Virus record (IMG/VR): IMGVR_UViG_3300022751_000018
Span: 1 to 64,000 of that record
DNA: 64,000 nucleotides
Strand: one strand, 5' to 3'
Origin: a virus
A program made the position numbers and the translations under genes. Each line of letters begins with the position of its first letter. Positions within the stretch are counted from its first letter, which is position 1. The notes under the pieces were generated by a model that made no database searches, was not told the DNA's origin, and saw only the letters and a program-made list of their open reading frames with translations. Below are positions 1,415 to 53,263 of this stretch, piece by piece.

Positions 1415-2596
1415 TTATATCCCATAGTAACGCGTTGAATTCACAGGCCGTTTACACATAGCACCCATAGTCGCATTAGAATAACGTTCTTCGAAACCAT
1501 CAGTCTTTTGTTGAACGCCAAGCAATAGAAGCTTAGTAGGTCCGCCTGCTAACCAAGTTTCGCCGCCATCTGTTGAGTACGGATCGTTTTCGGTCGATAC
1601 CATATCTCCATATAGATAGAATACGTTAGAGTTTGAGTAAGCAAGTTGCAACTGAGGAGCGTCAACTACGCGGCACATAGGATAATCCTTCTCTAACCAT
1701 GTATTAACTGTGTAACCAAATTCAGTTGTTTTACTTAGCCAATCGATACAATTCGTTGGAACCGCTAACGTGGTTGGGGTAGTTTTTGGATTTACATTAC
1801 CCTGAGTTTGATTTCTAAGCGCAACAAAAGCAGTCAATAGATCTTGAATAATTTCTAAGGCTGTTTTTGATGCCCAAGTTGTAGAGCTTCCTGCGCCTGC
1901 TGGAACGATAGTGTATGCGCTTAATTCCGGCGCGTTTAGAAAACCATACGTTCCACCTGCGCCGGATATGAATCCATTGAACGCAATTGAATTCCGAGCG
2001 ATCTCTAAACCTTGGGCAACCGCTTTTCGTTTCCAGCCAGCATCATCAAGCATACCTGCGGCAGCTCGTTTAGACTCTAGTTGAGATACAGTTAAACCCA
2101 TTTGCAAACGAATAATCGTACGAGGATTGTATGAAGGCTGATAACTTGCCTGTACATTATCAGTATTATCTAAATAAACCACCGGATTAGCCGTCATTTC
2201 GATTACAGACTGAACAACTTGTTGATCTTCCCACCGACCCAATGTTGCATATCCCATCAGCTTATCAGCTTGCCTGATCGATGTTAAAACCGCAACTTGA
2301 CCAGTAGGCCAATATTGCAAGAACTGGATTGGCGTGGGAACTGAAGGTGTATTCTGCGTTACCTGAAGAGTAACGGCATCAAAAACAACTGCCCCACGTT
2401 GATTTTTAGCCGCTTCATATACCTGGCTTAAAGGATGTTCATCATAAAAAATACCCATGCTTCTTAAGGACTGGATATTTTCTTTTGTGCCGTTAAAGTT
2501 TTCAACGCTTTTTCCTTTTCTTGCATCGAAGTCTCTAGCATGAATGACAGACTGGATTGCTGTCATGTTCTGTCTTGAATAGTTCATATTTTTCAC
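1415..2596 (-). CDS. major capsid protein (putative, HK97-like size)
   Basis: 393 aa. Last large gene of the terminase-portal-MuF-scaffold order. Confidence 0.55.
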   Translation of the reverse strand: MKNMNYSRQNMTAIQSVIHARDFDARKGKSVENFNGTKENIQSLRSMGIFYDEHPLSQVYEAAKNQRGAVVFDAVTLQVTQNTPSVPTPIQFLQYWPTGQVAVLTSIRQADKLMGYATLGRWEDQQVVQSVIEMTANPVVYLDNTDNVQASYQPSYNPRTIIRLQMGLTVSQLESKRAAAGMLDDAGWKRKAVAQGLEIARNSIAFNGFISGAGGTYGFLNAPELSAYTIVPAGAGSSTTWASKTALEIIQDLLTAFVALRNQTQGNVNPKTTPTTLAVPTNCIDWLSKTTEFGYTVNTWLEKDYPMCRVVDAPQLQLAYSNSNVFYLYGDMVSTENDPYSTDGGETWLAGGPTKLLLLGVQQKTDGFEERYSNATMGAMCKRPVNSTRYYGI

Positions 2597-2611
2597 CTAA
2601 TAATCGTTAGT

Positions 2612-3139
2612 TTATGCTGCTGCTGGTATTGCGTATGTCGGTTGAATCCTAATTACCGCCAAGCCTGCGCCTGCTGTTGAGTAGTTAATTACTTCTGCCT
2701 GGGCAAATAGTGTACCTGCGGACAAAGTAGCCCCTGGTGCAATAGTCGTAATAGTGCCTGTTGTCGTGTTATAACAAACTTTATCACCGATATTAGCTGC
2801 TGCTGGTAGATAAACTAACATCACACCCATAGAGCAAATAACTACTTGCGATGAATTCGCAACTGTCATGCTTGCTGTAAAATCACCATTATATAAAGCT
2901 AACGATTTAGGGCTTGCAAGAAAACCCGCCCACTTTGTTGAAGCATCTGATCCTTGACCAGCGGCGACATAAAGTGTTCCTTGGGTAGGCTGCCATGTAG
3001 CTACTGTTTTACCAATAACATTATAAGCCGCCGAAACTGAATTAATTGTTAACGCTTGGCCTGACCAGGGAGCGCTTTGATAGATCTCGCCCTGAATGCC
3101 AACACCCATTGTTTGATAAGTTGCTGATTGAAATGCCAT
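2612..3139 (-). CDS. putative head decoration / auxiliary capsid protein
   Basis: 175-aa Ala/Gly/Thr-rich ORF lying between the scaffold-like gene and the capsid gene. Confidence 0.3.
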   Translation of the reverse strand: MAFQSATYQTMGVGIQGEIYQSAPWSGQALTINSVSAAYNVIGKTVATWQPTQGTLYVAAGQGSDASTKWAGFLASPKSLALYNGDFTASMTVANSSQVVICSMGVMLVYLPAAANIGDKVCYNTTTGTITTIAPGATLSAGTLFAQAEVINYSTAGAGLAVIRIQPTYAIPAAA

Positions 3140-3141
3140 GA

Positions 3142-4368
3142 TTAAATTTCCCCTTTTTTGTATGCTGAAAGAAAGTCATAGGCTTCAACCTTTGGCTTAT
3201 CTGCTTTATCCATCGCCATAACAACTGCTTGTGGCGCTTCTTTTCCTGTTAAAAAACCTTTTAAATAGGTGACTTCATCCCCAATTGCGCATTCAATGGT
3301 ATGACCCATTTCCTTTAGTTTTTTAACGCCATATTGAGCCATTTCATTTAAAGTTAAAATATCTTTATTTGGAATAGTAATATGATCGGCAAGACTTTTT
3401 GCAAAATTTTCTCTTTCATTATTTCTAAGAAGGAATTCTTTTTCATCCATAGCTTTAGCGCCAGATTTTTCCTCATCCTTTTTATCTTCTTTGGATTCTT
3501 TTTCTGACTCGTCTTTAGCGGGAATTTTTTTATCTGCTTCACTTTCGCTATCAGCAATTGCAGCCGCTTTTGCTTCTTTCATTGCACGCACATCTTCACG
3601 TATTTCAGTAATCGCATCCATACAATCTTGAAGAGTAACAGACTTGTCTTTTGACTCATCTTTTTTTGATTCTTCATCTTTCATAGGAGCGTCTTTAGAC
3701 TCATCGTCTTTCTTGTATTCGTTATCAGCCATTTCAATAACCGCCTCTTGATTTGTTTCCGCTTGATCAAGAACCGCTACCAACGCACCCGATCGACCAT
3801 TGTTTACGATTGCAATATGATTGCCTGCGATGTTTTCTTGCACCACTTCGTATTCCTGTCCATTATAAACACCGTTTTGTATTTTGTACAAGCAGGTTGC
3901 TCCAATAGATATTTGTTTTTTTCCTTTTTCCATTTCTTTATTCATGTGGCCTGAAAAAAACATTAAATTAGATTTTAACATTCCGTCAGTTTCATCATAG
4001 AAAACCTCTTGCCCAGTAGCTCCATGTACTATTTTTTCTTCTGGCAAAATTCCATCTTTATTACTCACTGATAAGTAAGCGTGTCCATCAATAATTGGTT
4101 TTATTTTAAAAGAATCTAAAGTGTCACTTGCAGATAATTGCGCTGGAGATCTAAAAACTTTATACATTTTATTAGGATCAATTCCTTCTAAAACATTTCC
4201 ATCTGAATCAATAATGTTTTTCCCGAGATATTCTAATATCCCAGATCGCGCGATAGGGTTTGCTTTAATTTCGAAAAAACCATCTTTATTATAGTTTCTT
4301 TTGCTTTCTGAAATATCAAAAGCTAAATGAATTTCAGATAATTCATTTTGTAATTCAATCGTCGCCAT
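3142..4368 (-). CDS. putative scaffolding / prohead-processing protein with an acidic KDE-rich C-terminal half
   Basis: 408 aa. Long low-complexity acidic stretch (KDDESKDAPMKDEESKKDESKDKS...) typical of scaffold proteins. Position between the MuF-like and capsid genes. Confidence 0.4.
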   Translation of the reverse strand: MATIELQNELSEIHLAFDISESKRNYNKDGFFEIKANPIARSGILEYLGKNIIDSDGNVLEGIDPNKMYKVFRSPAQLSASDTLDSFKIKPIIDGHAYLSVSNKDGILPEEKIVHGATGQEVFYDETDGMLKSNLMFFSGHMNKEMEKGKKQISIGATCLYKIQNGVYNGQEYEVVQENIAGNHIAIVNNGRSGALVAVLDQAETNQEAVIEMADNEYKKDDESKDAPMKDEESKKDESKDKSVTLQDCMDAITEIREDVRAMKEAKAAAIADSESEADKKIPAKDESEKESKEDKKDEEKSGAKAMDEKEFLLRNNERENFAKSLADHITIPNKDILTLNEMAQYGVKKLKEMGHTIECAIGDEVTYLKGFLTGKEAPQAVVMAMDKADKPKVEAYDFLSAYKKGEI

Positions 4369-4384
4369 CTAAATAATCCTCATA

Positions 4385-6265
4385 TTAAAAACGAAATATA
4401 GCTCGCATTTTGCATTTACAATTCTTGCTTGTTATTTCTGTAGATGATACATTGAACCATCCATTATAACTTTCCATGGTGTAAACATGGCCTTCAAATA
4501 TACTACTGACTTTCTTCTCAACGCGAAACAATTTTTGGATGAGGGAATGACTTTGAGAGAGTTTTGCAAAATTAATAAAGTAGGACAAAGTCATTTGACA
4601 AAAGCCCTTAGGAATAGAATTAATTATATTTTGCCAAGCACTATTAAAATCAAAGCTGTGAATGCTAATGGCTCCAAAATTGTCGCAAGATATAATAAAG
4701 GAGAAAGCGTCCAATCTATCTCTATTTTCTATAAAGTTAGTCGGCAAAAAATTAATAGTATCCTTCAGGGGGAAGGAATTATTCTCAGGAATGGAAGTGT
4801 CGCTAGTAAAATCAGAATGTCTAAACTCACCATTGACGAAAGAAAACTTTTGAGCAAATCCGCCAGAAGAGCCAAGCTCAACAATCTTGGACATAAAGCC
4901 AGGAATAAAATTATTGATGATCAAATCGGAAAAGGTGAGGAAGAGCTTTTCAATGTCCTCGTCGCCGATGGATTTATCCCAGAAAGGCAGGCAATTATCG
5001 GTGATTATTGTATCGACATCGACCTCGGGCACATCGCCATGGAAGTTAAATTTAGAGCCAATATCAGTAAATTTGGAGCCGGAAGCCTCGATAGAATAAA
5101 AAAGATCAGCGAAAGTGGTCGTGATTTTTGTTTTTTTGTTATCAATGATCCTGTTGTCATAAGCTTGGCAAGAGACGAGATAATCTCCCTCATTCACGTT
5201 ATTGGCAGGAATCCAGCCCCTCAAGGTCAATATTGGGTGGTTAGGTGTACACTCGATAATCTCTCCGCCATTAAAACTTATGGAGACCATATCCCCTCTA
5301 TACATGTATCTCCAGAGGTTACGACATCCATTAGCAAGAGATACTATAGTTGATCCTGTAAAACAATTTGCTGGAAATCCAGGTAAACCTCGATCTTTAG
5401 AAGGAACTCCTAACGCGGCTTGCTCAGATAATAGATTGTCGAATGAAAATATCTCGCCGTCAATTTTTATATGCGAATGCCTCGGGTATCTTGATTCATA
5501 GGTATAAACCCATTCAAACTCTTTTATTCCTGCATTCATCAATCCTTGCTTGTTAATTGCAGTGTAAGCTTTTCTGGTTTGATCGTATGCTATTCTTGCC
5601 GCTCTACTGCTTACTAGTAAGTTATATTTTCCTAATATTCCAGTCGATTTTTTTTCTGAATGATTAATTATTTTTTCAGAATCTGGTATTAGTGATTTTA
5701 TTCCATCTCCTCCTTCGCTAATGGCGCGCATAACGGATCCAGAAACATCCGTAAAATATTTTTCTTGCAATGAATTTATATAAGTTATGTTTTCTTCAAT
5801 AATTGACTTTGAAATGTCATCAGTTCCTTTTTCCAACACTTCCTTTTTAATTGAAAGTCCGTCTTTCATTTTTCCGAAACTAAAGTTCAAGTTTACTAGG
5901 CTAATATTTTTTGTCTTACGCAACATTTCTTTTGCAATCAATTTTGCTCTTTTATTAAATATATATGAAAATTTAGCTATAAGTGAATTAATCAAAATCC
6001 TAGCTTGAGAGGATATGCTTTTATCGGAATCGTCCTCATCAATAGCAGAAAGTTTATTTTGTTTATTTAAAAATGATTCGAATGCTTTAGATGAAAATAA
6101 TTTTGATAGCTCAAGTGTTGTAGTAAATGTCATGTCATTAACAAGAATCATTATTTGATTATGATAATTTCTTTGAAGTGCAGCATTGTAATTAAGGGTG
6201 TGCCCCTTAATTACATTTTTATCACGATTAAGTAATCGTTTATTCTTCGTAGTCATTTGAATCAT
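4385..6265 (-). CDS. minor head protein, Mu F / SPP1 gp7 family, containing an intein
   Basis: N-extein carries YPRHSHIKIDGEIF, the MuF-like R..H..DG motif. The C-terminus carries SKNCKCK, matching the conserved NCRC end of the family. The frame stays open through an inserted Hint-domain-like segment. The start overlaps the portal gene, as is usual. Confidence 0.6.
   Translation of the reverse strand: MIQMTTKNKRLLNRDKNVIKGHTLNYNAALQRNYHNQIMILVNDMTFTTTLELSKLFSSKAFESFLNKQNKLSAIDEDDSDKSISSQARILINSLIAKFSYIFNKRAKLIAKEMLRKTKNISLVNLNFSFGKMKDGLSIKKEVLEKGTDDISKSIIEENITYINSLQEKYFTDVSGSVMRAISEGGDGIKSLIPDSEKIINHSEKKSTGILGKYNLLVSSRAARIAYDQTRKAYTAINKQGLMNAGIKEFEWVYTYESRYPRHSHIKIDGEIFSFDNLLSEQAALGVPSKDRGLPGFPANCFTGSTIVSLANGCRNLWRYMYRGDMVSISFNGGEIIECTPNHPILTLRGWIPANNVNEGDYLVSCQAYDNRIIDNKKTKITTTFADLFYSIEASGSKFTDIGSKFNFHGDVPEVDVDTIITDNCLPFWDKSIGDEDIEKLFLTFSDLIINNFIPGFMSKIVELGSSGGFAQKFSFVNGEFRHSDFTSDTSIPENNSFPLKDTINFLPTNFIENRDRLDAFSFIISCDNFGAISIHSFDFNSAWQNIINSIPKGFCQMTLSYFINFAKLSQSHSLIQKLFRVEKKVSSIFEGHVYTMESYNGWFNVSSTEITSKNCKCKMRAIFRF
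4487..5353 (+). CDS. antisense ORF nested in the intein, codon-aligned with it. Its status as a gene is uncertain.
   Basis: 288-aa ORF exactly complementary codon-for-codon to intein codons 304-593. Contains HTH-like segments (LREFCKINKVGQSHLTKAL, SISIFYKVSRQKINSIL) and a DUF559/Vsr-like PD-(D/E)XK-like stretch (EELFNVLVADGFIPERQAIIGDYCIDIDLGHIAMEVK). May still be a chance open frame. Confidence 0.15.
   Translation: MAFKYTTDFLLNAKQFLDEGMTLREFCKINKVGQSHLTKALRNRINYILPSTIKIKAVNANGSKIVARYNKGESVQSISIFYKVSRQKINSILQGEGIILRNGSVASKIRMSKLTIDERKLLSKSARRAKLNNLGHKARNKIIDDQIGKGEEELFNVLVADGFIPERQAIIGDYCIDIDLGHIAMEVKFRANISKFGAGSLDRIKKISESGRDFCFFVINDPVVISLARDEIISLIHVIGRNPAPQGQYWVVRCTLDNLSAIKTYGDHIPSIHVSPEVTTSISKRYYS
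4620..5365 (-). other. intein inserted in the MuF-like head protein (about 241-249 aa; C-terminal boundary uncertain)
   Basis: Block A CFTGSTIVSLANG begins at codon 301 (nt 5363-5365). Block B is ECTPNHPILT (the T..H...T motif). Candidate terminal Asn followed by Ser at FDFN|S (4643-4645) or IIN|S (4619-4621). Extein motifs resume afterwards. Confidence 0.5.
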
Positions 6266-10559: not shown

Positions 10560-10916
10560 ATGAACTTAGAATTAAATGAAGAAGAGTTTGATGCTTTATT
10601 GAATATGTGCATCATGGCACTAACAGTAGTGCAGCATAATGGCAATGTAACTCAGGATGAGATTCACATGAATGCGTTGTTTAACAAGATTGTTGCTTTA
10701 AAACCGAATCGAGATGAGTTTATTACAAATGAAAGATTTAATAGGCTTCATTATACTTTTTTTCATCCTTACCTTGATCATTTTAAAAACTTGCTTGATG
10801 AAGATGCAGAGCAGGCATTAGAAGTTAATGAAGTGGTTGATGCAGAGAATGTACAAGAGTTAGAGGAGCCGGTTGAGGCTGAGGTTATTAGAAATAATTT
10901 TTGGGGTAGATTATGA
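10560..10916 (+). CDS. hypothetical acidic protein
   Basis: 118-aa ORF, first gene after the tRNA cluster. Confidence 0.4.
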   Translation: MNLELNEEEFDALLNMCIMALTVVQHNGNVTQDEIHMNALFNKIVALKPNRDEFITNERFNRLHYTFFHPYLDHFKNLLDEDAEQALEVNEVVDAENVQELEEPVEAEVIRNNFWGRL

Positions 10917-11269
10917 AATTTTTAGAAGCGGCGAATAAGTTTAAAAAGATAAGGATGCCTAGCTGGTCAACTATATCTTTTGTAGAAAATGTTAATGGGT
11001 CATTAAAAATTAATTGCATGCTAACAACATCAGACCTTTCATCTGACGACTGGGAAGAATACAAAGAGCCACGCAAGTATCTTGAAAACAACAAGGAAGC
11101 TATGCAGGCTTTGATAGATGGCAAGAAGATTTCTAAAGACGCTTGGGGTGATGGTCGTTTTTTTACTCTTGATAAAGATGGATTTATAGTTGATAAGGAC
11201 GGTGATTATATTGATCCAACATGGCCCACCCCAAATTATCATGGCAAGTTTTATGTTGTTGAGGATTGA
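10913..11269 (+). CDS. DUF2829 (Tad2-like) family small protein
   Basis: N-terminus MKFLEAANKFKKIRMPSW fits the M.F.EAL..LK.GKK.RR..W pattern. DDWEEYKEPRKYL...AMQALIDGKK segment is shared with ORF 27913. Confidence 0.35.
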   Translation: MKFLEAANKFKKIRMPSWSTISFVENVNGSLKINCMLTTSDLSSDDWEEYKEPRKYLENNKEAMQALIDGKKISKDAWGDGRFFTLDKDGFIVDKDGDYIDPTWPTPNYHGKFYVVED

Positions 11270-27912: not shown

Positions 27913-28284
27913 ATGAACATATATGAAGCAAGTATAAATTTCGAAAAAATAAGAAGAAAGGGATGGCCTACGAAAAATTATCTTATATTAGGATTTAATA
28001 CGAAGATGTTTGAATCAAATTCTATAGATAATGATCAGTATTCTTTATCTTGGGATCAATTACGAGCCAATGACTGGGAAGAGTACAAAGAGCCTAAAAA
28101 GTATTTGACGACTAAAGAGGCTATGCAAGCATTGATTGACGGGAATAAGTTGCAAGCAGATAACTATGATGAAGATATCTTTATTTATCTTTGCGATCAA
28201 GGTCATATTTTGTTTAATCATGGGGCCGAGGCTTTTCCATGTTTCAGCAAAGATAGACAGTTTTACATATACGAGGGTGAATAA
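27913..28284 (+). CDS. DUF2829 (Tad2-like) family small protein, paralog of 10913
   Basis: MNIYEASINFEKIRRKGW. NDWEEYKEPKKYL..KEAMQALIDGNK. Confidence 0.35.
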   Translation: MNIYEASINFEKIRRKGWPTKNYLILGFNTKMFESNSIDNDQYSLSWDQLRANDWEEYKEPKKYLTTKEAMQALIDGNKLQADNYDEDIFIYLCDQGHILFNHGAEAFPCFSKDRQFYIYEGE

Positions 28285-35100: not shown

Positions 35101-36676
35101 TCATCTCATAAATGCTTGCTTGCTTGCCTTTTTGGAAGCGGCGGCGCTACGCATTTTATTTCGGTTTACGTTGAAAGAATATCTTACTAGAGTACTAGTG
35201 AAGATATTAAGAATAGTATTTTGTTTTTTAAACCTTGTCAATAGGGCAATAGAAAATATATTTTATTTGCGTTGTTTAACTTGATATTTGTTATATATTG
35301 AACTATAATTATCTAGTCATAAGATGATTAATGGGAGTATTTAATATGCAAACTGAGTCTTACACTTTACTAGATAAGGTCAATCAAGCTCGAGAACACC
35401 AAAAAGATTGGCTTGTTAGATGCAAAGAGAAAGGCATTGATATGTCATGGAAAGCGCATGTGGTTAAGAAAAAACCCATTAGTTTCGTTCCTATGAGTAG
35501 CCATAGAACCACCAATTTAGATTGGTAGCAGGAGATTAATTAATGAACACAAACATTTATCAAGTAAATGCGGGCCTTAGAGCTTGCAATCATTTTTCAG
35601 AATCTTACCCAGAAGAATTTACGCCTGAACTTTACGAATTTATTCTATTTTTAGAAGAGCTTAAAAAAGACTTGGAGGATTAATAATGGGATTTAACAAA
35701 AATACTATTTTAAAAAGTATAGAAGATTGTTTTAATAACATAAGCGAATCTGCGATTTGCTTGAATGATGGAAAAAATACAGATAAATGTAGAGAAGACA
35801 TTATTCTAAATGTAATGAATGGTATTCATGAACTTAGATCGCTTGAAAGTGAATTGCATGAAATTAAAGAGTCTATTTTACAATTAATGTATTGAGGTTA
35901 AATTATGAACTTACCTGAAATAATGAAAAGTGGTGATTATAAAAACGAAAGTTATGAATATTTTCTAACAAATAAGTCAGGGCATGAAGAAGATTTTGTT
36001 TTCTATTCAAGTAGCCTTCTATCTAAATGGGGATTTAATGACGGCGATACTTGGAGTGAAGAAAGCCTAGAAACTATTATTAATCAGTTTATTTTGCCTA
36101 ATTTAGATCAAAAAGTTGAAATATGTCACATATCGACTTCACACAATCCTTGGCGGGCAGAATCCATTGATGGCGTTGAAGTGCATCAATATTGGAGTGA
36201 TTACGAAAAATGCCCCGTAAAGATTACCCCGGAATTTTTATTTTTTAAACAAAAAGACATTTGGAAAGCATTAATTGAAAAAAGAGATAAAATATGAGCT
36301 TATTCGATAAAATTGATATTACAGATCGAGGCATTGATCAGATTGACAATATAAGGCATATTTTTAAGAAAATGGACGCTTATATTGACAGAATTATGCT
36401 AAAAGATATCGAAGGCACAAGCTCACGTTATAAAAGAGAGTTTGATATATGCAAGCAAAAACTTGAAGAAGCATGCTTTTATGCGATTAAATCTTGTTGC
36501 ATTAAAAATAGAAAATAATATATAATGCGCTTGAGTCTATAGCTTAATTTTAAAGCACCGTTTTTATAAGGGTGATCCTAAGGGTGAACAGTTTAGGTGG
36601 GCTCACAATCTGATCTACATTTAGTGTAGAAACAGTACCTGAGATCGTTATGCGATCACTGCTTTTAAATATTAAA

Positions 36677-48023: not shown

Positions 48024-48051
48024 TTGACATACTTACTGATAGGGGTATAAT
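48024..48051 (+). promoter_or_regulatory. near-consensus promoter TTGACA, 16-nt spacer, TATAAT, with upstream ATCATAAAATAG box; precedes recT
   Basis: Read directly from the sequence. Confidence 0.5.
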
Positions 48052-48081: not shown

Positions 48082-48837
48082 ATGTCAGAATTAGTAAAAT
48101 CAAATATGGCTTTAGCAGAATGGCACACAGAAGAAAATCTACAGCTTATTAAAAACTCAATGTGCAAAGATCTTAGTGATGATGAGTTCAAGATTTCTAT
48201 GGCGATGGCCTTATCTCGCGGATTAAATCCTCTAGCAAAACAAATCTATTTCTTGAAACTTCAAGGAAGGCTTGCATCTTGCGTTTCTATTGACGGCTTT
48301 AGATCATTGGCAGCAGAAACTGGACTTCACATGGGCACCTCTGATCCTATTTTCGATATGGAATCAGATGGAGTAACTCCAGTTTCTTGTAAAATTGTTG
48401 TTAAGAAATTGGTACAGGGTCAAATTGTAGAGTTCTCTTCTATTCTTTATTACAAAGAATTTGCAAACTCCAATCCTAATTGGGCTAAAATGAAAAGGCA
48501 CATGCTGGCTGTTAGAGCCGAAGGGCACGCTCTTAAAAAAGCATTTCCTGAGAAACTGGCTGGACTTACTGAGCAATCAGAAGCAGAGGATTATTCAAAA
48601 GCACCTAGTGGCAACGCAGTTTTGGACGCTTCTTTTGAAGAAGTTGACAATACTCCCAAGATTAAATCTTTTGAACAGCTTGAGATGGAAGGAAATGCAA
48701 AAGTATTCGATGGTCATGACGCTCTAAAATCATGGTATCACTCCCTTAAAAAAGAAGAAAAAGTGTTAATAACACCCGTTATGCCTTCTATAAAATCAAA
48801 ACTTGCAGTTGATCCGGCTACTGGCGAGTTATTATGA
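48082..48837 (+). CDS. recT: RecT-family single-strand annealing protein
   Basis: LSDDEFKISMAMALSRGLNPLAKQIYFLKLQGRLASCVSIDGFRSLAAETG matches the RecT core (GLNP..K..Y......G......G.R.LA...G). Confidence 0.6.
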   Translation: MSELVKSNMALAEWHTEENLQLIKNSMCKDLSDDEFKISMAMALSRGLNPLAKQIYFLKLQGRLASCVSIDGFRSLAAETGLHMGTSDPIFDMESDGVTPVSCKIVVKKLVQGQIVEFSSILYYKEFANSNPNWAKMKRHMLAVRAEGHALKKAFPEKLAGLTEQSEAEDYSKAPSGNAVLDASFEEVDNTPKIKSFEQLEMEGNAKVFDGHDALKSWYHSLKKEEKVLITPVMPSIKSKLAVDPATGELL

Positions 48838-49085
48838 AAAAACAGATATTAACTTATCTAGGAAATATGATAGCGTCATTTAAAGAGCAGGATAGGCTTG
48901 AATCTTTATGTGTTGCAAATTCATTAAAGACCTTTGTTGAGAAATTAAACGATCCCATAGTTGAAAGTAATTTTTCTTTTTATGAAAAACGAAATATTAT
49001 CAATTCTATTGGGTATGCCGTTCAAGAAGAAATTTTTAATGAAAAAACAGGGTTTCAACTAATTAAAAAGGTTTGCGAATTATGA
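48834..49085 (+). CDS. hypothetical protein
   Basis: 83-aa ORF. Confidence 0.3.
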   Translation: MKKQILTYLGNMIASFKEQDRLESLCVANSLKTFVEKLNDPIVESNFSFYEKRNIINSIGYAVQEEIFNEKTGFQLIKKVCEL

Positions 49086-49894
49086 GAACTGAAAAATTTA
49101 TATCAAAAGATGGATTCGAAATTCAACAGTTTGATAGTGGCGAGTGGGATGTTCGCCTAATCGACTGCAAAAATTTAAACACTGAAGTTATTTGGAACTG
49201 GTTTAAAGAGCCAGATATTATGATTCCTTTGCTTAAGGCAGATTGCATACGTCAAGTATTTGGGCTAGTTGAATTGACTTTGATTTGCAAATATCTTCCT
49301 TATTCAAGGCAGGATAGAGCTTTTAATTTAGGACAAGGAATACCTGCCCAAAGGATTGTTAGAACTTTGTTTAATCAGTTTGAATCAATAGAAACAATGT
49401 GCCTTCATAACTTTCCAATTCCTCATGATGGCGACGAAAGAATTTACAATGAATTTATTGAAATTAATAATAACAAAATAATTGTTTTTCCTGATAAAAA
49501 TGCCCCAAGACATTTTAATGTTAATGACTCAGTTCCTCATATAATGCTTGAGAAAATTAGGTCAGAAAATGGTATAAAATCTGAAATAACTTGCGAAAGT
49601 CTTCCTGATGGTGTTTCTGAGTTTGATATAAATGAATCATTTTTAATATGTGATGATATATGCGATGGGGGAAGATCCTTTGTAGAATGCTCTGAAAAAT
49701 TAAAAGAAAGATTCGGTCATGATATTAAAATAGAACTTTTAGTAGCGCATGGATTTTTATCCCGTGGTTTAGAGACATTAAAAGCAAGCGGTATATCAAA
49801 GATATATATAGCCAATTATGACTCTTACGAATATTTACGAGATAAATTCAATGATGATTATATTGAATTTCTTGGCCTCCAAATGCCATTTTAA
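49073..49894 (+). CDS. ribose-phosphate pyrophosphokinase (Prs)-like enzyme; candidate ADPR-PP synthetase (Adps) of NARP1
   Basis: LPYSRQDRAF (Prs N-domain motif). PRPP-binding loop FLICDDICDGGRSF. Shorter (273 aa) than housekeeping Prs. Directly upstream of the NAMPT-like gene. Confidence 0.55.
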   Translation: MRIMRTEKFISKDGFEIQQFDSGEWDVRLIDCKNLNTEVIWNWFKEPDIMIPLLKADCIRQVFGLVELTLICKYLPYSRQDRAFNLGQGIPAQRIVRTLFNQFESIETMCLHNFPIPHDGDERIYNEFIEINNNKIIVFPDKNAPRHFNVNDSVPHIMLEKIRSENGIKSEITCESLPDGVSEFDINESFLICDDICDGGRSFVECSEKLKERFGHDIKIELLVAHGFLSRGLETLKASGISKIYIANYDSYEYLRDKFNDDYIEFLGLQMPF

Positions 49895-49907
49895 TTAAGG
49901 AATAAAA

Positions 49908-50141
49908 ATGTGTACTGAACTTTTCGAAATTGGGCAATCAGAAATAAAAATTAAAAATGGATTTCTTGTTCAAGGAGATTTTAGTGCAATAAAAATACAA
50001 GAAATAATAAGTATATATAAGACTGGGTTAGAATATTTGCATATAAATATCAAAGGGATTGATTATTGCCATCCACATAGATTTTTTTCGGAAAATGAAC
50101 GAAATTTAATATTTAATAAAATTATTGAGAATAAGGAATAA
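49908..50141 (+). CDS. hypothetical small protein
   Basis: 77-aa ORF. Confidence 0.3.
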   Translation: MCTELFEIGQSEIKIKNGFLVQGDFSAIKIQEIISIYKTGLEYLHINIKGIDYCHPHRFFSENERNLIFNKIIENKE

Positions 50142-50143
50142 AA

Positions 50144-51820
50144 ATGAACCCACTATTATTAACTGACGCCTATAAAACAGGCCATCATAAACAATATCCT
50201 GAAGGCACTACGTTGGTTTATTCCAATTTTACGCCACGCAGCAATAAGTACGCGCCTAAAGGATACGATCATGTCGTTTCTTTTGGTATGCAGGCAGTGT
50301 TTAAATTCATAGATCAAATATTCGTTAATGACTTTTTCAAAAAACCAAAAGAAGAAGTTTGTGGCGAAATGAAGCGTGAACTGTCGCTTTACCTAAATAC
50401 TGACTACGATGTTTCTCATTTTGAAGCGCTTCATGATCTTGGCTATCTTCCTATTTGTGTTAAGACAATTGAAGAGGGTTCCTTGGTTCCCATGAAGGTT
50501 CCTGTATTAACGATTTATAATACGCATCCTGATTTTTTCTGGGTGACAAACTACTTAGAAACTTTAATAAGCAATTTACTTTGGAAGCCTTTGACCTCAG
50601 CAACAATCGCCTTTCAGTACAAAAAGCTATTAACTGAATGGGCTTTAAAAACTGACAAAGAGAATGTAGATTTTGTTGATTTTCAGGCTCATGATTTTTC
50701 TATGAGAGGATTAAGTGGAATTGACTGTGCGGTTTTCTCTGGTCTAGGCCATTTAACATCTTTCAAAGGAACGGATAGCTTGCCTGCTATTTGGGGTGCT
50801 AGGCAGTTTTATGGAATGATAGGTTCAAAAGAAGATCCATTTATCGCTGGCAGCGTTAATGCAACCGAGCATAGCGTAATGTGTGCGGGCGGCAAAGAAG
50901 ATGAGCTTGAAACTTTTAGACGTTTGCTCTCAACTTACCCAACGGGAATACTATCAATCGTATCTGACACGTGGGATTTGTGGAAAGTGCTCACTGAGTA
51001 TCTTCCTATCTTACGTAATGAGATTATGGCACGCGACGGTAAGATTGTGATTCGTCCTGATAGTGGCAAACCAACGGATATTATTTGTGGCGATTCAGTA
51101 TTGAAATATGAAAATCTTAAAAAAGCAAAAGACAAATTTGAGCAGAATATTCATGATATGCAGGAGCATGGCGAACAGGGTGACGATGAATATGATTGCA
51201 TATCTAAAATTGGGGACAAGTTTTATAAATTGAATGCTGAGATTGAATGGAATCGTTACGATAAACAATATTATCATATTGAAGGAATTCGCATTTCTGA
51301 AGAAGAATATTATTTGAACAACAAAGAAAAAGGTGTCATAGAGCTACTGTGGGACATATTCGGAGGAACAGTAAATTCACAAGGCTATAAGGTTCTTGAT
51401 CCACACATTGGAGCTATCTACGGTGATTCTATTACGCTTGAAGTAGCCGAAGATATTTGTCAACGCTTACAAGCGAAAGGTTTCGCGTCAACGAATATTA
51501 TTTTTGGAATAGGTTCATTCACATATCAGATGAATACCCGAGATACCTTTGGCTTTGCCATGAAATCAACTTATGTCGAAATAAACGGCCAAGGTCATAA
51601 TATTTTCAAAGATCCTATTACGGATGATGGCATGAAGAAGAGCGCCACTGGGTTATTAGGTGTTGGAATTTTGCCAGAAAATAAAGAATTTATACTTGTT
51701 AATGGATGCTCCTGGGAAGTTGAAAAAACAGGATCATTACAGGAAATCTACAGAGACGGTAATTTTAGCAATCAGACTAATTTAGAAAATATTAGAAAAA
51801 AACTTAAGGAACGGTTATGA
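50144..51820 (+). CDS. nadV: nicotinamide phosphoribosyltransferase family (NadV/NAMPT-like); candidate Namat of NARP1
   Basis: N-terminal NPLLLTDAYKTGHHKQYPEGTTLVYSNFTPRS matches the NadV signature (DxYKxxH..YP....YS.FTPRS). Length 558 aa. Confidence 0.8.
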   Translation: MNPLLLTDAYKTGHHKQYPEGTTLVYSNFTPRSNKYAPKGYDHVVSFGMQAVFKFIDQIFVNDFFKKPKEEVCGEMKRELSLYLNTDYDVSHFEALHDLGYLPICVKTIEEGSLVPMKVPVLTIYNTHPDFFWVTNYLETLISNLLWKPLTSATIAFQYKKLLTEWALKTDKENVDFVDFQAHDFSMRGLSGIDCAVFSGLGHLTSFKGTDSLPAIWGARQFYGMIGSKEDPFIAGSVNATEHSVMCAGGKEDELETFRRLLSTYPTGILSIVSDTWDLWKVLTEYLPILRNEIMARDGKIVIRPDSGKPTDIICGDSVLKYENLKKAKDKFEQNIHDMQEHGEQGDDEYDCISKIGDKFYKLNAEIEWNRYDKQYYHIEGIRISEEEYYLNNKEKGVIELLWDIFGGTVNSQGYKVLDPHIGAIYGDSITLEVAEDICQRLQAKGFASTNIIFGIGSFTYQMNTRDTFGFAMKSTYVEINGQGHNIFKDPITDDGMKKSATGLLGVGILPENKEFILVNGCSWEVEKTGSLQEIYRDGNFSNQTNLENIRKKLKERL

Positions 51821-52197
51821 AATTTGAAGAGATACTGCCTTTATTGAAAAAAGGTAATAAAGCGTATTGCGAGGGACGAATGGTCGGATGTTATTTATCA
51901 ATAAATTCAGACAATCTTTTATGTTGGTCTTGTATAGCAGTTAAAGCAGTCACCCATTGGTTCGAAGGATCAAATATGTGTCTTAGAGATGACTGGGGAA
52001 TTTATGAAGAAGAAGCCAAAGATAATAAAGAAAAAAGACTAATTGATTTTTCTGTAAGCTGGCACTCAACCATTGACTATATGGACAGAAACGAAAAAGA
52101 CTTTATCGCCGATGGATGGGAAACTTTTAAAAAAGAATCTCTTGAGCACGGAGATGGACTTATGTGTCACAAATTAATGATGGTAAAATATGAGTAA
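51817..52197 (+). CDS. DUF2829-like small protein with C-terminal DGWETF..LMMVKYE
   Basis: MKFEEILPLLKKGNKAYCEGRM N-terminus. C-terminal motif shared with 14108, 15893 and 52190. Confidence 0.35.
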   Translation: MKFEEILPLLKKGNKAYCEGRMVGCYLSINSDNLLCWSCIAVKAVTHWFEGSNMCLRDDWGIYEEEAKDNKEKRLIDFSVSWHSTIDYMDRNEKDFIADGWETFKKESLEHGDGLMCHKLMMVKYE

Positions 52198-52407: not shown

Positions 52408-52665
52408 ATGGCAGACTTTGAATGGGTAATGTTTGATCAAGAAGACATAGAAACCTGGCCTGATTATGAAGTTCCGGTTATTATTGAAATAACAGATTTT
52501 GATAGTTTTTGTTATTTTGTAGCATGTTTAGAGCATGATTCACATAGTTCTGTAGATTATTTTTGCAAGAACTGTAATTGTGGTTATCAACCAAATAACT
52601 TAAGTGATAATAGGTTTCACGTTGATTTAAAATATGTAATAAGGTGGAAGTATGTCGGACTTTGA
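52408..52665 (+). CDS. hypothetical Cys-rich small protein
   Basis: 85-aa ORF. Confidence 0.3.
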   Translation: MADFEWVMFDQEDIETWPDYEVPVIIEITDFDSFCYFVACLEHDSHSSVDYFCKNCNCGYQPNNLSDNRFHVDLKYVIRWKYVGL

Positions 52666-53263
52666 AATAGCACTTAAAAAAACCCTTCACAACGAAGGTT
52701 TAGATAAGTACACAGAAACTAAAGATGACAGAGGCGGAGCAACAAAGTACGGAATCTCATTATCATTCTTAAAATTATGTTTTGAAAAAGATAAAGATAA
52801 GCTCTTAAGAGCGCTGGGTACTTTTTTTAATGAGCCAAGCAAGAATATTATATCAGGATTAACGCTGGATCAGGCTAAATCTATGTACAGAGAGTACTTC
52901 TGGTCAGCAAACCGATATGGTGAGATTAACGATCAATGGATGGCGGAAAAATTATTCGATCTTTCTGTTTTATTTGGACAGCACCCGGTTAATATTAGAA
53001 TACAGAGAGCAATAAATAAAATTTTGAAATTTGAAGATTCTATGGATTATATAGATTATGACAAATTTAGACTAAACCACGATGGAATAATTGGCCAAAA
53101 AACCATTTCTTTGATTAATGAAGAATCGAATCTTAATTTTAGAAACGAGGCGAGAATGATTGTATTCAAGAAATATATGACAACTTATTGCCTAGATATA
53201 TGCAACGAAGACAAAAAACAAAATGGAAGCTTAAAGGGTTGGTTAAATAGGGTGATGTCGTGA
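52652..53263 (+). CDS. GH108-family lysozyme (N-acetylmuramidase-like), probable endolysin
   Basis: N-terminal LHNEGLDKYTETKDDRGGATKYGIS matches the GH108 EGGY..D..D.GG.T.YGI signature. Confidence 0.55.
   Translation: MSDFEIALKKTLHNEGLDKYTETKDDRGGATKYGISLSFLKLCFEKDKDKLLRALGTFFNEPSKNIISGLTLDQAKSMYREYFWSANRYGEINDQWMAEKLFDLSVLFGQHPVNIRIQRAINKILKFEDSMDYIDYDKFRLNHDGIIGQKTISLINEESNLNFRNEARMIVFKKYMTTYCLDICNEDKKQNGSLKGWLNRVMS

Follow-up and report, generated by a model that had tools for sequence, protein, structure and literature searches.

A probable NARP1 operon, diverged but intact, in an uncultivated E217-like phage

A Prs-like gene followed by a NAMPT-like gene in a phage raises the question of whether the encoded enzymes rebuild nicotinamide adenine dinucleotide (NAD+) from ADP-ribose (ADPR), as in the pathway NARP1, or serve a classical salvage route. 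Such genes are found in a 64,000-nucleotide stretch of viral DNA (positions 1 to 64,000 of the IMG/VR record IMGVR_UViG_3300022751_000018; hereafter the window, at its full length). NARP1 is defined by an Adps-clade Prs homologue beside a Namat-clade Nampt homologue (Osterman et al., bioRxiv 10.1101/2024.02.11.579819), and the initial annotation of the window had read the genes as Adps plus Namat, not as Prs plus NadV. Our analysis agrees: the locus is very likely a diverged, intact NARP1 operon of an uncultivated E217-like tailed phage of ~68 kb. The presence of the genes, their family placement, signatures and linkage, purifying selection on them and the lack of genes for alternative pathways are established here. 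As the two-enzyme NARP1 pathway was already described, the window copy is a further, diverged instance of it and leaves the understanding of the pathway unchanged.

Both open reading frames (ORFs) lie on the plus strand at the coordinates first given for them, 49073-49894 (273 aa from a TTG) and 50144-51820 (558 aa), and the strings LPYSRQDR, FLICDDICDGGRSF, DAYKTGHHKQYP and YSNFTPRS by which they had been recognised are all present. The description as a gene pair holds in that both genes are there on one strand, but they are not directly adjacent, a 77-aa ORF (49908-50141) lying between them. The genes and their diagnostic elements are the following.

49082-49894, plus strand: adps, encoding by homology a predicted Prs-fold ADP-ribose diphosphokinase, 270 aa from ATG
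49073-49894, plus strand: adps from the alternative TTG start, 273 aa (ORF listing)
49553-49555, plus strand: Adps catalytic lysine K158 (LEKIRS), by alignment with SPbetaL1 K162 and ICP1 K185
49652-49681, plus strand: Adps-type PP loop DDICDGGRSF, equivalent to ICP1 D212-F221 (alignment; PMC13586617)
50144-51820, plus strand: namat, encoding by homology a predicted Nampt-fold nicotinamide ADP-ribose transferase, 558 aa
50231-50269, plus strand: selectivity-clamp loop (SCL) TPRSNKYAPKGYD (alignment; PMC12774641)
51122-51325, plus strand: lineage-variable Namat insertion of ~68 aa, residues 327-394, relative to SPbetaL1 Namat
51512-51544, plus strand: selectivity-clamp helix (SCH) GSFTYQMNTRD (alignment; PMC12774641)

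The most likely start of adps is the ATG at 49082, not the TTG at 49073, because this ATG overlaps the stop codon of the preceding gene, orf83, as ATGA and a public database calls the Prs-like gene at 270 aa (P0001).

The reactions and their effect against host defence are predicted as follows from homology to the systems of SPbetaL1, ICP1, FADO and Bas63. A host NADase effector of the SIR2, TIR or SEFIR type, as in type I Thoeris, DSR1/2, SIR2-HerA and similar systems, would cut NAD+ into ADPR and nicotinamide. Adps, a putative Prs-fold diphosphokinase minus the Prs regulatory/filament module and with a rewired ATP-donor loop, would move the beta,gamma-pyrophosphate of ATP onto the 1'' hydroxyl of ADPR, giving ADPR-pyrophosphate. 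Namat, in which a Nampt-fold catalytic core would be joined to an adenine-recognising clamp at the pocket entrance, would then swap the pyrophosphate for nicotinamide and yield NAD+ directly, with no nicotinamide mononucleotide (NMN) intermediate and no NMN adenylyltransferase (Nmnat).

Under the best-surviving alternative, itself very unlikely, the first protein would be a diverged phosphoribosyl pyrophosphate (PRPP) synthetase and the second an NMN-making NadV/Nampt, with host NadR, NadD or PncC finishing NAD+; this would raise NAD+ and nucleotide supply generally and would not recycle ADPR. The names given by curated annotation models favour it, as they call the proteins 'ribose-phosphate diphosphokinase' and 'nicotinate phosphoribosyltransferase'. 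The residues and relatives of the two proteins suggest that these names are mislabels. The Pfam families matched by the two proteins are also those first reported for the Bas63 operon, whose annotations were then shown to be wrong (Osterman et al., bioRxiv 10.1101/2024.02.11.579819).

Signatures of Adps and Namat in the two proteins

The first protein matches phrog_619 (6e-29) and TIGR01251 (1e-15, 57.5 bits against a cutoff of 113), with PF14572 sub-threshold, and falls far below the cutoffs of all NCBIfam Prs models. On TIGR01251 a real Prs, that of E. coli, scores 423 bits and validated Adps enzymes 96-119, which argues against a PRPP synthetase. Residues were compared in an alignment of the validated ICP1, SPbetaL1 and FADO enzymes, a Felixounavirus protein, the vB_BcoS-136 homologue, metagenomic relatives and E. 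coli Prs. Structures of ICP1 Adps had identified as determinants the PP loop (C215-S220), K185, F18/R87/F92, H121, D161 and D212/D213 (PMC13586617). In the window protein, CDGGRS replaces DTGGT, the loop with which Prs holds the phosphate of ribose 5-phosphate. Its PP loop, DDICDGGRSF, is that of Felixounavirus (DDICDGGRTF) except for S in place of T at a single position, and has DDICDG..SF in common with ICP1 Adps (DDICDGAASF), E. coli Prs having DDMIDTGGTL. The lysine K158 aligns with SPbetaL1 K162 and ICP1 K185, either of which abolishes Adps activity when substituted by alanine (bioRxiv 10.1101/2024.02.11.579819; PMC13586617). Likewise, F17, R76 and F81 align with F18, R87 and F92, which contact the adenine of ADPR in ICP1; H109 and D138 align with H121 and D161, and D191 and D192 are also conserved. 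The protein had been noted as truncated, at 273 aa. Its shortness does match the loss of alpha11-12, a defining signature of the Adps family (PMC13586617), although the likely ATG start gives 270 aa; the C-terminal alpha11-12 module is missing from it, while E. coli Prs extends past the aligned core.

The nearest neighbours of the protein point the same way. Since a word-seeded homologue search, which is biased to shared pentapeptides, returned only DDICD-type proteins, an exhaustive HMMER profile search was run without a word index and gave 8,640 matches at E<=1e-3. A PP loop was recognisable in 132 of the best 140 non-self matches; the canonical Prs DTGGT(L) occurred in none of these 132, all but two carried DD[IL]C.GG.(T/S)F, and their median length was 276 aa. 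The nearest neighbours are thus all Adps-type. In a neighbour-joining tree with 100 bootstraps, the Prs of E. coli, M. jannaschii and T. volcanium were set apart from all others (98/100), and the window protein belonged to a separate subclade (78/100) inside the group containing every validated Adps enzyme. A sequence search of the PDB returned Prs entries only, and a scan of IMG/VR with the single protein found no match, so that an alignment of the clade was needed as query. Given its Adps-specific PP loop, the lack of a Prs C-terminal module and scores far under the curated Prs cutoffs, the Prs-like protein is classed here as Adps-type.

The second protein matches NF006629 (1.6e-162, 541 bits), phrog_448 (3.8e-189), PF04095 (1e-38) and PF18127 (2e-9). 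At such values both proteins are assigned to their families well beyond chance. Against the PDB it scores 523 bits to SPbetaL1 Namat (9W5X/9W5W) versus ~234 bits to the NAMPTs of three mammals (human, mouse and rat); the second-best match, at 455 bits, is 9KE8, whose identity was not found in the searchable literature. Its identity to the Namats of SPbetaL1 and FADO is 51-53%, that to NARP2-type Nampts ~30%. The determinants described for Namat are a catalytic core and a selectivity clamp that consists of an SCH of the form GSX-phi-X-phi-X-phi-TRD, with aromatic residues at X, and a variable SCL, in which the third position is R, K or Y and, where it is K or Y, stacking falls to the residue after it (PMC12774641). 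The catalytic core is wholly conserved by alignment, with D8, Y10, F185, R188, D211, H243, R304 and D306 matching SPbetaL1 D13, Y15, F189, R192, D215, the catalytic His, R306 and D308; in SPbetaL1, Namat R306G, like Adps K162A, lost activity (Osterman et al., bioRxiv 10.1101/2024.02.11.579819).

The clamp separates the protein further from the Nampts. The 11 residues of its SCH, GSFTYQMNTRD, fit the published form with T, Q and N as phi and F, Y and Met as X1, X2 and X3, compared with GSFTYQYNTRD in SPbetaL1 and GGGLLQQLDRD in NARP2-type Nampts (KVP40-type, CcrColossus, WSPA and RAS14). The SCL reads TPRSNKYAPK, where FADO has TPRSNKYFPK and NARP2-type Nampts have ESRGGKF; it is longer than in Nampts and by alignment places K35-Y36 at the adenine-stacking positions, making it Lys-type as in FADO and Bas63-type proteins. 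The ~68-aa insertion is at the same site as insertions in the Felixounavirus, vB_BcoS-136, L001 and L002 homologues and is homologous to that of vB_BcoS-136 (NRYDK..Y..G). An insertion at this site is presumably compatible with function, because Bas63 NARP1 works in vivo (judged from a Felixounavirus proxy of the same genus). In the neighbour-joining tree, Nampt references split off from the rest at 100/100, together with one exceptional protein described below (L053), and the window protein joined SPbetaL1 and FADO at weak support (48/100). With this clamp and the closeness to validated Namats, the NAMPT-like protein is best placed as Namat-type, which disfavours an NMN-making enzyme. The phylogenetic check proposed in the initial annotation thus keeps the window proteins apart from both Prs and NARP2-type Nampt.

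Several points weigh against this assignment of the two proteins. The window Adps is just 20-25% identical to any validated Adps and appears to represent a strongly diverged subclade distinct from the assayed enzymes, in trees that are neighbour-joining with few canonical outgroups. Its short length is not specific to Adps, as archaeal class III Prs also have ~285 aa. The profile phrog_619 was dropped as a discriminator between Adps and Prs; it gives the window protein 102 bits versus 193 for E. coli Prs, and a profile score alone cannot classify such a protein. The ICP1 donor-site residues A218, A219, F223, I194, V195 and C197 are replaced by G, R, E, K, S and I; the genus of Bas63, whose NARP1 is validated in vivo, has G-R and E at three of those positions. 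In the clamp, SCH position 7 is Met where SPbetaL1 has an adenine-contacting Tyr (Y396), and mutations in the SPbetaL1 clamp cost part of the activity (PMC12774641). Met is rare here, shared with only one (L042) of 73 Adps-linked relatives, in which position 7 is Y in 51, F in 8, C in 7, H in 4 and V, M or L in one each. Non-aromatic residues at this position, found in 10 of the 73, thus occur naturally. Finally, Namat enzymes keep PRPP-dependent NMN synthesis in vitro (bioRxiv 10.1101/2024.02.11.579819; PMC12774641), so that some classical activity is possible. Classical salvage would draw on this activity, on the Met in the clamp and on the divergence of the Adps-like protein.

Gene linkage, selection and the lack of alternative pathways

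It was reported that 97% of Adps genes have a Namat gene within 10 genes (Osterman et al., bioRxiv 10.1101/2024.02.11.579819). In the window operon, adps and namat lie within this distance, on the same strand and 250 nt apart with the single 77-aa ORF between them. The linkage was also followed in 80 related IMG/VR loci found with the Adps clade alignment. A same-strand Nampt-family gene stands beside the Adps-type gene in 78 of them, the other two ending ~1.2 kb past the Adps gene. The gap between the genes is at most 100 nt in 57 of the 78 pairs and more than 100 nt in 19 of the 78 loci. A Namat-type SCH is present in 73 loci and a Nampt-type motif in one (L053), four being truncated. An exact-product look-up found the adps-namat pair in L001, L002, L095 and L096 as well.

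The nearest relative is L095 (GCA_040384425.1), with an Adps 78% identical to that of the window. The ratio of nonsynonymous to synonymous substitution rates (dN/dS) against L095 comes to ~0.15 for Adps and, across the first 237 codons of its gene, to ~0.05 for Namat, values that are rough as dS is near saturation. Both genes therefore appear to be under purifying selection.

Three loci stand out. In L053 (IMGVR_UViG_3300025005_000009), an Adps-type gene with a DDIC.GGR loop accompanies a protein with the Nampt-type clamp region GVGGLLLQQHSRD, the sole such case among the 78 loci; this protein grouped with NARP2-type Nampts in the tree and is an exception to the association of Adps with Namat. 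In Aeromonas phage AS-zj (L090, NC_048673), the Nampt-family gene at 1492-3018 encodes the clamp region GSWGFLKNASRD, which fits neither the Namat nor the Nampt consensus, and a prs-like gene is found four genes upstream; in the tree the protein lies outside the NARP2-type Nampt clade, yet distant from validated Namats. In the record of Vibrio phage ICP1_2006_A (L007, HQ641351), the nadV coding sequence at 3965-5458 (439 aa) is short by ~50 N-terminal residues, including the equivalents of D13/Y15, and a 37-aa 'hypothetical' ORF stands just upstream. The record probably contains a mis-annotated start or a frameshift.

Two stretches of the window, 4974-1 and 64000-51939, are found at 100% identity in L094, separated there by 4,281 bp, and the ENA contig k141_1923607 of ERZ27228458 (68,422 bp) joins both window ends. 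The assembly is indicated to be circular, with the window and the gap making up the whole genome, because 64,000 + 4,281 = 68,281 bp = 68,422 - 141, where 141 is the assembler k-mer and the contig has a 141-bp terminal overlap. The completing segment (L094:4975-9255) holds tail genes only, for E217-like tail sheath, tube and terminator proteins. The genome encodes five tRNAs (Leu, Asp, Met, Gly and Trp) and has ~35% GC. It has no close cultured relative, because none of 50,697 phage records matched the segment at 48.0-53.5 kb in a Megablast search.

Pfam scans of the 130 window ORFs found no PF01467 nucleotidyltransferase/NMNAT, NadR, PnuC, Nudix or Macro family member. The absence of an NMNAT from the window had been pointed out in the initial annotation, together with the need to search the rest of the genome; none is present in the completing 4,281 bp, and phmmer, run on all six frames of the full 68,281 bp with the NMNAT of CcrColossus as query, gave no match. 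NARP2 consists of a Nampt-clade enzyme and an Nmnat, and no phage has both NARP1 and NARP2 (Osterman et al., bioRxiv 10.1101/2024.02.11.579819). Besides lacking an Nmnat, the window operon has a clamp motif and a tree position outside the Nampt clade. Other described variants are NARP1-AP with the Macro-domain protein Adpp, NARP1 extended by RyDEP, and NARP3 with PnuC and NadR. Neither the PnuC-like transporter nor the NadR-like enzyme of NARP3 is found among the 130 ORFs and the genes of the missing segment. At the level of HMMER, orf83, orf77, orf126 and the small ORFs downstream have no Macro (PF01661, PF14519, PF20016) or RyR (PF02026) domain; as the published screen for Adpp and RyDEP used HHpred, a very remote homologue is possible. 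By these searches NARP2, NARP3 and, at HMMER level for Macro, NARP1-AP appear excluded, because no NMNAT, NadR, PnuC or Macro-domain gene is in the genome.

The lack of an Nmnat also speaks against the classical salvage route described above, as phages using the NMN route almost always (94%) encode their own. Moreover, a double mutant in pncC and nadR still supports Bas63 NARP1, so that host NMN salvage is dispensable for this gene pair (Osterman et al.). Recycling of ADPR by Adps and Namat remains by far the preferred reading of the operon.

Operon layout, orf77 and other candidate anti-defence genes

From RecT to a GH108 endolysin, the ORF listing gives a tightly packed, co-directional array on the plus strand, in which NARP1 is flanked or interrupted by the following elements.

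48024-48051, plus strand: candidate sigma-70 promoter TTGACA-16-TATAAT, 12/12, upstream of RecT
48082-48837, plus strand: RecT (ORF listing)
48834-49085, plus strand: orf83, an 83-aa ORF directly before adps
49896-49910, plus strand: 15-bp direct repeat TAAGGAATAAAAATG, copy 1, ribosome-binding site (RBS) and ATG of orf77
49908-50141, plus strand: orf77, a 77-aa ORFan between adps and namat
50132-50146, plus strand: 15-bp repeat TAAGGAATAAAAATG, copy 2, orf77 stop codon with Namat RBS and ATG
51817-52197, plus strand: orf126, a 126-aa ORF with an ATGA overlap with namat; its place in the functional unit is uncertain
downstream of orf126: further small ORFs (ORF listing)
52652-53263: GH108 endolysin (ORF listing)

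The site at 48024-48051 is the sole 12/12 sigma-70 match in 44-56 kb; promoter-like counts overall are not above those of shuffled sequences, so it is a tentative one. No plus-strand terminator-like site follows it until 54778. Because of this consensus before RecT and the lack of a terminator-like site, the genes from RecT to NARP1 are probably co-transcribed, possibly from this promoter, which is known by its consensus match alone.

The ORF between adps and namat is the sole unexplained element of the operon. In L095, Namat starts directly after the Adps stop and is served by a single copy of TAAGGAATAAAAATG. In the window this 15-mer is doubled with a 236-bp period and orf77 lies between the copies, giving orf77 and namat the same initiation context. 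Because L095 has one copy and the window two with orf77 between them, orf77 is a recent cassette insertion that kept the translation signals of Namat. Consistent with this, orf77 is missing from L095 and from all other loci, and it has a GC content of 24% compared with 32-37% in its flanks. A chance ORF of this kind has a probability of ~0.003. Among 5.8 billion proteins orf77 matched only itself, it has no Pfam, PHROG or PDB match, and its single-sequence AlphaFold2 (AF2) model reached a pLDDT of 60.5. It was also considered as an Adpp or RyDEP, identities rejected for its small size and the lack of an HMMER match to such domains. It is very unlikely that orf77, possibly together with orf126, adds a further type of accessory factor to NARP1 besides these two; if it does, it could for instance inhibit a host response directed against the pathway, or broaden or adjust the input that the pathway takes. 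Whatever its role, the cassette provides a clean example of the insertion of an extra gene into a NARP1 operon.

The input of the pathway is also at issue in a second alternative, under which the Adps subclade, perhaps with orf77 or orf126, would act on some other compound derived from ADPR, such as a modified or cyclic form produced by a different effector, with NAD+ still the end product via Namat. This is highly improbable. The separate subclade of the window Adps, its non-conserved donor-site residues and the frequency of intergenic insertions, seen as gaps of >100 nt among the relatives, are in its favour, and there is precedent in the same slot of the operon, with Adpp acting on ADPR-1P and RyDEP on 2'/3'cADPR (bioRxiv 10.64898/2026.01.28.702374; 10.64898/2026.05.28.727677). 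However, the ADPR-contacting F17, R76, F81, D191 and D192 are conserved, orf77 is too narrowly distributed to be a conserved pathway component, and neither a Macro nor a RyR domain was found by HMMER. That the genes are instead decaying or non-functional remnants carried passively is next to untenable, for despite the unusual divergence of Adps and the foreign AT-rich insertion mid-operon, both frames are intact with every catalytic residue conserved, dN/dS is low (0.15 and 0.05), the insertion re-created the RBS and ATG of Namat exactly, and the adps-namat pair is conserved across the whole subclade.

Downstream, orf126 overlaps the namat stop codon as ATGA and so is translationally coupled to it. 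High conservation marks its C-terminal ~50 aa (LIDFSVNW...GWETFK...HKLMMVKYE), which relatives carry joined to other N-terminal domains, DUF1737 among them. In the AF2 model only this C-terminal module is confident, with a weakly DUF1737-like fold, and the N-terminal half is unmodelled. The N-terminus has a weak Tad2-like motif (PF11195, 15.3 bits against a cutoff of 25). With this score and no Tad2 match of the model in the PDB by Foldseek, orf126 as a Tad2 is unsupported.

The initial annotation had also suggested layered anti-Thoeris capacity through Tad2-like genes, which are probably the ~120-aa ORFs at 10913-11269 and 27913-28284 on the plus strand. The suggestion is a weak one: together with orf126 these ORFs do match PF11195, but at 20.9, 20.7 and 15.3 bits, all below the cutoff. 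The two ORFs also match a 'Tad2-like (faint)' protein of L096 at 7e-10 and 2e-11, and their assignment is tentative. A 74-aa ORF at 36294-36518 on the plus strand matches the Acb2/Tad1 hairpin domain narrowly above threshold (PF24729, 27.4 bits with a gathering cutoff of 27, E 3.8e-6); its product may be a sponge for cyclic nucleotides, acting against CBASS or Thoeris. Elsewhere, within 1-30157, the window encodes RtcB (E 1.7e-120) and a PNKP-type HAD phosphatase (5e-33), together one tRNA-repair pair of a sort that typically counters anticodon nucleases. Intein-splicing domains were matched twice, once in a 626-aa Mu-F-like head protein (4385-6265, minus strand), and two HNH_3 endonucleases are encoded as well.

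The window operon among known NARP systems

Recognising the window operon as NARP1 would give the genes a correct anti-defence annotation in place of the names assigned by curated models. The phage is accordingly predicted to resist NAD+ depletion of the SIR2, TIR and SEFIR types and, because it has no Adpp, to be still sensitive to aRES. The residue-level rules for Adps versus Prs and Namat versus Nampt, published in 2026, work on a strongly diverged metagenomic phage. NARP1 is extended to a diverged Adps subclade in E217-like phages of ~58-68 kb, and natural variation, a Met, is documented at the adenine-contacting position of the clamp.

Compared with NARP1 of SPbetaL1 and FADO, the window likewise has adps then namat on one strand, an identical Namat catalytic core, the Adps catalytic Lys and no Nmnat. 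Its SCH is one residue away from that of SPbetaL1 and its SCL is nearly identical to that of FADO. Unlike in those phages, the Adps (~22% identical to theirs) has the PP-loop subtype DDICDGGRSF instead of DDLSSFGGTF, Namat carries the ~68-aa insertion and Met rather than Tyr at clamp position 7, and a 77-aa ORF separates the genes.

The Felixounavirus NARP1 (Bas63 / JohannRWettstein, with phage warpig as proxy) shares with the window the PP loop bar one conservative change, the site of a Namat insertion and an SCL of the Lys type. Identity is ~25% for Adps and 41% for Namat, and the insertion sequences, the phage lineage and the genome size differ. With ICP1 Adps (24% identical) the window protein has in common the lack of alpha11-12 and equivalents of K185, F18, R87, F92, H121 and D161, as well as of D212, D213, I214, C215, D216, G217, S220 and F221, whereas other residues stand in place of A218, A219, F223 and, in the hairpin, I194, V195 and C197.

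An extra gene within the operon is also found in NARP1-AP (Adps-Adpp-Namat in Vibrio phage Gary) and in the RyDEP-containing NARP1 of mycobacteriophage DyoEdafos. The window insert differs in being a 77-aa ORFan that is too small, has no Macro or RyR domain and is missing from the closest relative. Finally, NARP2 (a KVP40-type Nampt with Nmnat) and bacterial salvage by Prs and NadV have the protein folds and the end product NAD+ in common with the window operon. They differ from it in that the whole phage genome is without Nmnat, the Namat clamp of the window protein is not GGGLLQ..DRD, and the Prs-fold protein has neither the DTGGT loop nor the regulatory module.

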